From: a virus
Taxonomy: Duplodnaviria; Heunggongvirae; Uroviricota; Caudoviricetes
IMG/VR virus record: IMGVR_UViG_2541047501_000021
Coordinates: 1-10,764 of that record
Reading direction: 5' to 3' (one strand)
Length of the DNA stretch: 10,764 bases
The translations under genes were made by a program, and so were the position numbers. Of this stretch, positions 5,841 through 6,547 are shown piece after piece. A model generated the notes under the pieces. It did no database searches. It saw only the letters and a list, made by a program, of their open reading frames with translations, and was not told where the DNA came from. The first letter of the stretch is position 1. Each line of letters starts with the position of its first letter.

Positions 5841-6026
5841 AAGGGACTGCGTCGGCGGATTTCACATACTCAATGATGGCTGCTGATGGAGAGCCTTTTC
5901 CTCCCGAACTTAAAATAACCCCCGGCAATCATCCGATGGTAACAATAAGAGCAATAGAGAATTACTGGTTTAATCCAGTTCAACAATAGTTGGTCTTTGC
6001 AATATTTTTAATGGGCCACTACGCCC

Positions 6027-6212
6027 TTAATCTCGGGCGGCGTTTAACTCTTTATTCAGTAAATCAGACTGATACTGATTTGGCTTTGTAATGATACTGT
6101 CAAGTTTTGATATATGAAATTCAACATGTTCTGGACAGTTAAAAATGTAATAACCGCCCTTCTCTAAAAAGCCAGAAAGAGCGTTACAGGCAGGGCATGG
6201 TTTGTTTGGCAT
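6027..6212 (-). CDS. Small zinc-ribbon-like protein (61 aa; C-x2-C...C-x2-H) on the antisense strand of the dicB operon
   Basis: ATG at 6212-6210 with a strong GGAGG 5 nt upstream. Translation MPNKPCPACNALSGFLEKGGYYIFNCPEHVEF... has paired CPxC and CPEH motifs. No recognised homolog. Confidence 0.35.
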   Translation of the reverse strand: MPNKPCPACNALSGFLEKGGYYIFNCPEHVEFHISKLDSIITKPNQYQSDLLNKELNAARD

Positions 6213-6547
6213 TTTATCCTCCATTAAGGGCTGAATTAAAAATGGAGACCAACACGCTGCTACGTGTGGTCGTGCGCCGGACACAGATAAGAATCCGGCA
6301 CTGACAGTTTACTGAAAGGATATATCCCTGAAAAGTCAGGGCATAACACGAAAGTGCACGGCGAAGTCCTTCTCCCTTAGAGCCGTCGTTAAATTTAATT
6401 CGACCGTGCGCTTCCGGTTGTGGCAATCCGCGAAATGGCGCGGCGGTAAGTATGGCGGGGTTATTCCTTCCCCCGTTGAGGACACCGGGTTGTCAGGTTG
6501 ACCATACGCTTAAGTGACACCCCAGCCACAACAACCTCTGTTATCAC

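Follow-up and report, generated by a model that had tools for sequence, protein, structure and literature searches.

A conserved, pseudoknotted RNA domain in the leader of the small RNA DicF of Qin-type prophages and related elements

A 10 764-nucleotide (nt) stretch of DNA from a virus of the class Caudoviricetes (IMG/VR record IMGVR_UViG_2541047501_000021, positions 1-10,764; hereafter the window) was analysed over positions 5990-6547, which lie upstream of a variant of the small RNA (sRNA) DicF. The interval is a composite of two independent features: the tail of a cassette that carries an antisense gene for a small protein, and the leader of DicF. The leader contains a structured RNA domain of 118 nt, a well supported, very widespread and uncatalogued element next to a classic sRNA; DicF was among the first bacterial small RNAs to be described. 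We hold this descriptive part with high confidence, as a joint judgement on the two-feature composite, the leader homologous to that of Escherichia coli K-12 and the structured domain. For the best explanation as a whole, in which composite and leader are combined with a proposed mechanism at the DicF terminator, we estimate a probability of roughly 0.4.

An earlier reading of the letters alone (the original prediction) had described the interval as an inserted segment of about 550 base pairs between a ydfC-like gene and dicF, made up of an antisense zinc-ribbon open reading frame (ORF) and a hairpin-dense, GC-rich stretch, and had named it the best candidate in the window for something undescribed. 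In this last respect it was right, as the 118-nt domain has no match in Rfam 15.

Fold and covariation of the RNA domain

A search of phage genomes with positions 6255-6600 first showed that a sub-segment is shared beyond Qin-type prophages. The helices were initially drawn from visual inspection, followed by a MAFFT alignment with 37 representatives, in which 94.1% of the cells pair (34-52% with the partner strands slid) and ten pairs change on both sides. A covariance model, R1, was built without the pseudoknot and aligned 82 hits, 76 of them distinct. Over these 76 copies 96.7% of the cells pair, compared with 35-52% in the slid controls, and 13 pairs show compensatory changes on both sides, compared with 2-4; not one of 500 shuffles reached any of the observed pairing measures.

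The fold consists of an outer stem (P1), two hairpins (P2 and P3), a short helix C, a helix B and a pseudoknot helix A, one strand of which lies in the loop of B (Table 1). Helix A is 99.6% paired although it was outside the R1 model, and its pairs run through the series U-A, U.G and C-G, a series that recurs in helices B and C. Five helices, the pseudoknot among them, show compensatory changes, and RNAalifold recovered P1, P2, C, P3 and B from an independent, structure-free MAFFT alignment. G.U cells greatly outnumber A.C cells (157 versus 28), and the structure is therefore one of RNA read on the plus strand. The copies are 113-122 nt long (117, 118, 121 and others, with 117 and 118 about equally common); as these lengths do not keep to multiples of three, a reading frame across the domain is ruled out and the element is non-coding.

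Between P1 and the lambdoid phages the sequences of loops and pseudoknot hardly differ, and P3 varies freely. Single mutants of the pseudoknot strand are very rare (three IMG/VR contigs, one of them G.U), and no double mutant of helix A was found in IMG/VR. The near-invariant loops and the rarity of pseudoknot mutants point to a conserved macromolecular partner. Copies of the P1 type have diverged to about 75% identity with the fold kept.

Thermodynamics by itself is weak evidence for structure here, the folding z-scores being -2.3 on the plus strand and -3.7 on the minus strand for positions 6260-6595, and -1.4 for positions 6410-6590. The four perfect short hairpins listed in the original prediction are present at the positions claimed, none of them followed by a T-run, on direct reading of the sequence. 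Its idea of a structured RNA holds for two of them, 6428-6443 and 6456-6475, which are helices P2 and P3 of the conserved pseudoknotted domain with its compensatory changes; the other two, 6276-6299 and 6326-6341, fall in a mosaic part of the leader where no convincing covariation was found. The stretch is GC-rich in a modest sense only, with 52% GC at 6272-6548 and 58% at 6416-6533 against 46% for the whole window.

The Rfam/Infernal scan and covariance analysis that the original prediction had proposed returned no catalogued family but a conserved, covarying fold. No Rfam 15 family matches the domain of the window or its K-12, P1, cdtI and Rac-like copies, at gathering or at permissive thresholds (E <= 10 for the window, E <= 1 for the other four), and no tRNA or tmRNA-like element was detected with ARAGORN. 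A description of the 118-nt fold was found neither in Rfam 15 nor in the searchable literature, which leaves the dicF papers of 1990 and 1994 and the P1 genome paper outside it. Part of the domain copy in the P1 record is labelled 'dicF-like region', so that the sequence homology had probably been noticed before.

A nine-base sequence, GUUGAGGAC, occurs twice in the window, at 6475-6483 in the internal loop of the domain and at 6751-6759, at the ribosome-binding site of dicB. Either copy could be paired by the C/U-rich P3 loop (UUCCUU); conservation of the segment does not extend to all variants of the domain.

Distribution and genomic context

The domain was found at a coverage of at least 80% in 4305 of 5426 complete E. 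coli genomes, at 8968 places in all and at up to eight per genome. Most of these copies are 90-100% identical, and no annotated feature lies under the domain among the matches listed. About 500 plasmids carry the domain as well, often as records of about 95 kb that match in the same way as the P1 copy, and so do cdtI and Stx2c-converting phages, Rac-type phages, Salmonella phage F1055 and P1/P7. All copies obtained by pattern scanning, in IMG/VR and in a set with a single genome for each species, came from Escherichia, Shigella, Citrobacter, Trabulsiella and Erwinia tracheiphila. R1 gave one hit each in the complete cdtI and F1055 genomes and one each in the early regions (about 5 kb) of Tritos and P1; no second copy was found with it in the rightward (PR) operon.

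Every copy lies within a repressor-controlled early transcript. In the Qin types the domain follows ydfA/ydfB and the gene in the ydfC position, in cdtI and Stx2c phages it lies about 270 nt after a near-consensus PL promoter, and in a Rac-like phage it is placed between the gene for a DicA-type repressor and kil. In P1/P7 it comes shortly downstream of the annotated C1-controlled Pban promoters, about 25 nt from the inferred start site. No gene for an N-type antiterminator is annotated in the early operons of the O157 homologue (RefSeq), cdtI or the Rac-like phage, and in the Stx2c phage, which is unannotated, none of the ORFs that directly follow cI was seen to resemble N.

A hairpin resembling an intrinsic terminator and followed by a U-run occurs within 140 nt after the domain in 57 of 58 distinct contexts, compared with two of 58 in the upstream control; the median position of the U-run is +68. 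The gap between domain and terminator is filled by a DicF-type sRNA, the 5' part of which varies with the phage type. The domain and the DicF-type hairpin and terminator travel as one unit in Qin-, Rac- and cdtI/Stx2c-type prophages and in P1/P7.

Two peculiarities of individual versions were observed. In a Rac-like phage whose record names it an Actinobacillus phage, the DicF-type unit, comprising the domain's 3' end, sRNA and terminator, is duplicated in tandem (locus L152, 2590-2760). In the versions from Erwinia, Trabulsiella and F1055 a strong Shine-Dalgarno sequence and a start codon lie in the large loop of the terminator after the domain (locus L147, 4650-4740; equivalents in L133 and L006), and the small ORF extends through the 3' arm of the terminator, an arrangement that looks like translation-termination coupling.

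The DicF leader and the DicF variant

Positions 6272-6548 align at about 90% identity with the 340-nt spacer between ydfC and dicF of the K-12 Qin prophage. The segment of about 550 base pairs was therefore not an insertion relative to a compact Qin arrangement, and its GC-rich half is an ordinary leader of Qin-type prophages, which about 79% of complete E. coli genomes possess. When the window was aligned with both K-12 Qin and an O157:H7 prophage, its homology to the K-12 spacer ended upstream of about 6272. We read positions ~6272-6548 as the normal untranslated leader between the gene in the ydfC position and DicF, which would be transcribed on the plus strand from a repressor-controlled early promoter; they correspond to the known long untranslated region containing dicF in the dicBF operon (PMC5069750).

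Upstream of the domain the leader (6272-6415) is, over 66 distinct copies, a patchwork of alternative sub-modules with mostly uncompensated changes. A conserved structure was considered for this part and dropped, since it is mosaic and shows no convincing covariation, and no structural claim is made for it. A small peptide at 6243-6305 was also rejected on inspection, as the frame of the window (20 amino acids, aa) and that of K-12 disagree. The hairpin at 6276-6299 (GCGCCGGACAC...AUCCGGC) also stands alone between PL-operon genes of the Stx phages P13374, phi191 and TL-2011c (locus L150, 2505-2545). Downstream of the domain an A/U-rich single-stranded linker leads to DicF, which in K-12 begins at UUUCUGG. 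The K-12 5' end is made by RNase E, according to PMC5069750, which cites Faubladier et al. (1990) for it.

The DicF neighbour assumed by the original prediction exists, in a shortened variant that the Rfam DicF model misses. It lies downstream of the conserved leader and has the seed UUUCUGGUGA, identical to that of K-12, and after this an intrinsic terminator; relative to the DicF of K-12 and O157 it has an internal deletion, so that the middle of K-12 DicF is gone. The Rfam model RF00039 gave no hit in the window at its gathering score (48 bits), nor at E <= 10 within 5700-7000. The same search scored K-12 DicF at 76.7 bits, at positions 2884-2935 of locus L002 only and not in the domain upstream; the model spans just the sRNA of 52-53 nt, and the 118-nt fold lies outside it. 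The short-DicF region is 100% identical in O157:H7 and other E. coli, 442 genomes covering at least 80% of the query 6520-6625. It is unannotated among the matches listed and is also present in E. albertii.

K-12 produces a terminated DicF of 53 nt, made by RNase E, and a read-through DicF of 72 nt, made by RNase III (PMC5069750, PMC9438474). In the spacer between dicF and dicB (6583-6770) of the window a long-range duplex of about 28 base pairs is predicted, roughly 6583-6612 with 6728-6758 (z = -4.2), and fits the published RNase III cut that gives the 72-nt form. The same spacer has a sub-threshold match to STnc100, a Salmonella sRNA family (29.5 bits against a gathering score of 47), as it does in K-12, P1 and the Rac-like phage.

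An informative relative is KilS (b4833) of the K-12 Rac prophage (locus L158, 5400-5560, minus strand), a DicF-type unit upstream of kilR that was discovered by RNA interaction by ligation and sequencing (RIL-seq) and verified by Northern blot, and that may start at its own promoter. KilS occupies the equivalent position in a homologous early operon (ydaF/ydaG, then the sRNA, then kilR) and shares the DicF-type hairpin, the terminator and the downstream spacer sequence. It differs in lacking the 118-nt domain, which in K-12 Rac has been cleanly deleted between the two P1 strands. That K-12 Rac makes KilS without the domain weakens the claim that the domain is required for sRNA production.

Table 1. 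Positions of the features described in the text (SD, Shine-Dalgarno sequence; CDS, coding sequence; UTR, untranslated region)
Feature	Position	Strand	Basis or remarks
Structured RNA domain, 118 nt	6416-6533	+	Covariance model R1, 140.9 bits
Outer stem P1	6417-6424 / 6525-6532	+	Alignment
Hairpin P2 (CCGCG / CGCGG)	6428-6432 / 6439-6443	+	Alignment; sequence reading
Helix C, three pairs	6445-6447 / 6484-6486	+	Alignment
Pseudoknot helix A (GUAUGG / CCAUAC, latter in loop of B)	6450-6455 / 6502-6507	+	Alignment
Hairpin P3, variable, C/U-rich loop (CGGGG / CCCCG)	6456-6460 / 6471-6475	+	Alignment; sequence reading
Helix/hairpin B	6487-6495 / 6515-6523	+	Alignment
Upstream mosaic leader	6272-6415	+	Aligns with K-12 Qin; hairpins 6276-6299 and 6326-6341, long imperfect hairpin ~6351-6412
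Hairpin GCCGGA / TCCGGC	6276-6281 / 6294-6299	+	Sequence reading
Hairpin CCCTGA / TCAGGG, loop AAAG	6326-6331 / 6336-6341	+	Sequence reading
A/U-rich single-stranded linker	6534-6548	+	K-12 alignment; matches place of RNase E cut for DicF 5' end
Short DicF variant, ~39 nt	6549-6587	+	Seed UUUCUGGUGA; one hairpin 6562-6581; U-run 6583-6587 (terminator scan)
129-aa ORF in the ydfC position, 5' part of cassette	5451-5840	+	PHROG 1363, E = 1e-50, function not assigned
Antisense gene, 61-aa Cys-Cys-Cys-His protein	6027-6212	-	RefSeq CDS WP_001133046.1; PHROG 10133, E = 7e-48
5' UTR of antisense gene	6213-6299	-	SD GGAGG 6218-6222; hairpins 6247-6271 and 6276-6299

Comparison with known regulatory RNAs

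In its logic the domain most resembles the put RNAs of phage HK022. Both are structured RNAs in repressor-controlled early transcripts of temperate, N-less enterobacterial phages, both are situated upstream of terminators that need to be passed, and both have sequence-constrained loops, suggesting a protein partner such as RNA polymerase. The cdtI copy lies about 270 nt from its promoter, as putR does from PR (PMC9378689). The differences are that put consists of two stem-loops of about 70 nt arranged in a V shape (PMC9378689), whereas the domain has four or five helices and a pseudoknot in 118 nt; that put is present in two copies (PL and PR) and the domain in one per phage genome; and that the domain is always attached to one specific terminator, its antitermination being a proposal only. 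Homology to put was tried and rejected, as blastn at word size 7 against the HK022 immunity region gave chance hits only (E >= 1.8), and a search of HK022 24000-32500 with R1 returned nothing. The resemblance is by analogy and does not extend to sequence, architecture or copy number.

The leader is long and untranslated and should therefore be exposed to Rho, which brings to mind nut sites (boxA and boxB) and the boxA anti-Rho elements of rrn and CRISPR transcripts. Compared with boxA (CGCUCUUA / UGCUCUUUA), a similar sequence is found directly 5' of the domain in its promoter-proximal versions, which reads UGCUCUUU in Trabulsiella but GUGCUCUCUUC in Erwinia as well as F1055; its counterpart in the window and in K-12 is GUGCGCUUCC. 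Unlike nut sites, the domain is not accompanied by an N gene, and the boxA-like sequence has beside it no boxB hairpin of 15 nt with a GNRA-like loop. Identity with a nut site was rejected, N gene and boxB being absent and boxA inconsistent.

The position of the domain directly upstream of an intrinsic terminator (57 of 58 distinct flanks) is that of a riboswitch or attenuator. The alternative pairing of sensor and terminator expected of such elements was not seen, however, as in both the minimum-energy and the centroid fold of 6410-6590 the whole domain and the terminator coexist. Inspection, as a non-exhaustive search, revealed no conserved complementarity between the domain and the terminator arms, and the P1 terminator differs in sequence. 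The Rfam scans described above likewise matched no known riboswitch class. With no competing fold a classical switch of the riboswitch type is unlikely, and since domain and terminator fold together any effect on termination would have to act through the polymerase or a factor and not through alternative pairing.

Proposed function

The cell-division inhibitors encoded in the dicBF and kil operons influence stress survival, phage resistance and the virulence of enterohaemorrhagic E. coli. In the searchable literature no explanation was found of how transcription continues beyond the DicF terminator into the toxic genes of these operons. We propose, as a possible though on balance doubtful reading, that the domain is a cis-acting leader RNA that sets the level of read-through at the DicF terminator into dicB or kil. 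The domain would fold on leaving RNA polymerase and act on the polymerase or on a bound host or phage factor; this action would fix the share of transcription that passes the DicF terminator and escapes Rho. The read-through would reach the toxic genes downstream (dicB or kil, and recombination genes), and the terminated fraction would be trimmed by RNase E to give DicF. The proposal is favoured by the lack of a fold that competes with the terminator, by the near-constancy of loops and pseudoknot beside a variable P3, and by the boxA-like sequences that adjoin the domain in its promoter-proximal versions. In Rac, kilR is turned on by read-through transcription when the termination factor NusG is itself repressed (PMC5793797).

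Several observations weigh against this proposal, the mechanism of which we infer from position and conservation. The domain is present in a single copy, with none in the PR operon, unlike put or nut. In Qin-type operons it lies 0.9-2 kb from the promoter, behind translated genes. The boxA-like site is degenerate in the window and in K-12 and absent in P1. Some natural copies (L060, L136, L152) are without the 5' strands of P1 and P2, and K-12 Rac has lost the whole domain and kept terminator, KilS and kilR. The tight link to one terminator fits an sRNA unit equally as well as an antiterminator. All copies come from closely related elements of Enterobacteriaceae, which limits the power of the covariation, and part of the conservation may reflect recent horizontal spread.

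Alternatively, in line with the original prediction, the domain could be a platform for processing and stability of DicF-type sRNAs, a rigid structure 5' of the A/U-rich linker that positions RNase E and might shield the upstream fragment from 3' exonucleases. We consider this rather unlikely. The distance from the domain, which borders the linker, to the 5' end of DicF is 15 nt, that end depends on RNase E (PMC5069750), and a DicF-type hairpin and terminator are always linked to the domain; but KilS of K-12 Rac is made with the domain deleted, as verified by Northern blot (it may have its own promoter), P1 and the cdtI-type phages have no upstream coding RNA in need of protection, and guidance of RNase E would not obviously demand near-invariant loop and pseudoknot sequences. 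A trans-acting role is quite unlikely in our view. The domain would then form the 5' part of a longer RNA (about 180-450 nt) with a DicF-type, Hfq-binding terminator, the first product of the early promoter after derepression, which would sequester a host protein or pair through the loop of P3, a sequence resembling an anti-Shine-Dalgarno. From the arrangement of promoter, domain and terminator in P1 a separate RNA of about 185 nt would result, all P3 loops are rich in pyrimidines, several of them with CUCCUU or CCUCC, and the unit moves between phages as a block. Against this, the P3 loop is the least conserved part of the domain, the Qin-type domain is internal to an mRNA and is cut from DicF by RNase E, and a long DicF isoform containing the domain is not mentioned in the reviews consulted, among them PMC9438474 and PMC5069750.

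That the domain has no function of its own, being a hitch-hiking leader that looks conserved through recent recombinational spread of the dicF module, appears improbable. Its taxonomic spread is limited (Escherichia, Shigella, Citrobacter, Trabulsiella, Erwinia and Salmonella phages), the near-identity of most copies is combined with strongly mosaic flanks, and deleted versions persist. A passenger of this kind would not account for compensatory changes in five helices including the pseudoknot, for conservation in blocks, with invariant loops beside a freely varying hairpin, for the retention of the fold in the P1-type copies at ~75% identity or for the extreme rarity of helix A mutants. Least probable by far is a protein-coding function of the GC-rich stretch. 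Some phage records annotate hypothetical proteins there, mostly on the minus strand, so that deposited annotations overlap the match in several phage genomes, and the window itself has minus-strand ORFs at 6336-6485 and 6461-6679. The varying copy lengths (113-122 nt) break any frame across the domain, however, stem substitutions are compensatory with G.U tolerated on the plus strand only, and RefSeq leaves the domain unannotated in E. coli.

Read-through control at the DicF terminator is thus a proposal about a conserved, uncatalogued fold that about 80% of E. coli genomes and the P1-like phage-plasmids carry at the point where transcription enters the toxic early genes. The domain is a concrete and easily mutated candidate for a control element as well as a new motif for RNA family databases; at present both it and the common shortened DicF variant escape automatic annotation. 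A more specific form of the proposal, that the domain represents a new class of phage cis-acting RNA binding the transcribing RNA polymerase or Rho/Nus factors, is in our judgement unlikely. Were it true, lambdoid prophages without N and the ban operon of P1 would have an early transcription that resists the DicF-type terminator as well as Rho, the put principle would have a second, structurally unrelated example, and the division inhibitors DicB and Kil would be under a hidden switch in most E. coli strains.

Antisense gene

The antisense ORF was described correctly in the original prediction. Direct reading of the sequence gives 61 aa from an ATG on the minus strand, with GGAGG five bases upstream, CPAC as residues 6-9 and CPEH as residues 26-29; in a program-made list of ORFs the same frame was extended to a GTG at 6284. 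It is probably a real gene, as indicated by its RefSeq CDS, its PHROG match and a 48%-identical homologue with the CPxC...CPxH pattern. The idea that it forms a single cassette with the structured RNA was abandoned. The RNA domain is absent from the loci of the homologue (P0005), and the RNA occurs without the ORF in P1 and in phages of the cdtI and Rac types, so that the two are independent modules. At its own loci the P0005 gene is also antisense within a related early-left operon (repressor, a 135-aa gene, the antisense gene, small genes and DUF1482).

Relatives of the 61-aa protein are few. They form two clusters at 90% identity among 5.8 billion proteins, and an exhaustive search of 1.84 billion cluster representatives gave four matches, two of which are odd repetitive proteins. 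C6, C9, C26 and H29 are invariant in all four aligned sequences, including P0005, which has 91 aa. P0005 and an E. coli allele of 84 aa read on past the stop codon of the window with a related tail, from which the 61-aa form is recognized as a C-terminally truncated allele of a rare protein of 84-91 aa. The ORF is an ordinary orphan prophage gene of narrow distribution.

An AlphaFold2 model of the 61-aa protein was of medium confidence (predicted local distance difference test score 73), with a beta-rich N-terminus and a C-terminal helix. A fold search of the PDB with this model (Foldseek) found nothing significant, the best match having E = 1.6 and the zinc-finger protein ZifS E = 2.4, and no Pfam family matched the sequence at E <= 1. 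The protein shares with small phage zinc-ribbon and zinc-finger proteins the CPxC and CPxH knuckles, about 16 residues apart, and the predicted beta-rich N-terminus; it differs from them in having no Pfam family and no significant structural match. It probably binds zinc, and the label 'zinc ribbon', applied to two Cys/His knuckles with no family or fold match, is plausible.

In the 5' UTR of the antisense gene an upstream CUCCAUU would be able to pair with AAUGGAG and mask the Shine-Dalgarno sequence. This segment is shared with phage phiP27 (1950-2050 of locus L151), where it precedes a different, unrelated ORF of 35 aa, which suggests that a conserved module for antisense expression can exchange its cargo. 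On the minus strand upstream of the gene a consensus sigma-70 promoter was looked for and not found.

Cassette in the ydfC position and other features of the window

According to the three-way alignment, the departure from K-12 is confined to positions ~5451-6271, a cassette that replaces ydfC and comprises a 129-aa gene and the antisense gene. It occupies the ydfC position of a Qin-type dicBF early operon, and positions 5990 to about 6271 are its tail. The 129-aa ORF had been called ydfC-like, a label that did not hold, as BLASTP against K-12 YdfC gave E = 0.4 across 12 residues and no homology. In the O157:H7 SS52 record the ORF is annotated as a hypothetical protein, and the operon runs in the order helix-turn-helix repressor, relBE, ydfA, ydfB, hypothetical protein, (antisense hypothetical protein), dicB, DUF1482 and exonuclease. 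This version of the cassette is carried by about 388 complete E. coli genomes.

Elsewhere in the window a toxin-antitoxin pair of the relB/relE type occupies 4398-4876, between the gene for the DicA-type repressor and ydfA; K-12 Qin is without the pair. At 9591-10748 on the minus strand, beyond a truncated integrase, two adjacent ORFs of 213 and 144 aa share the C-terminal motif CP(V/I)TL...PE(D/T)GVFMRNS...HPLSRE and are paralogues on the strength of it.

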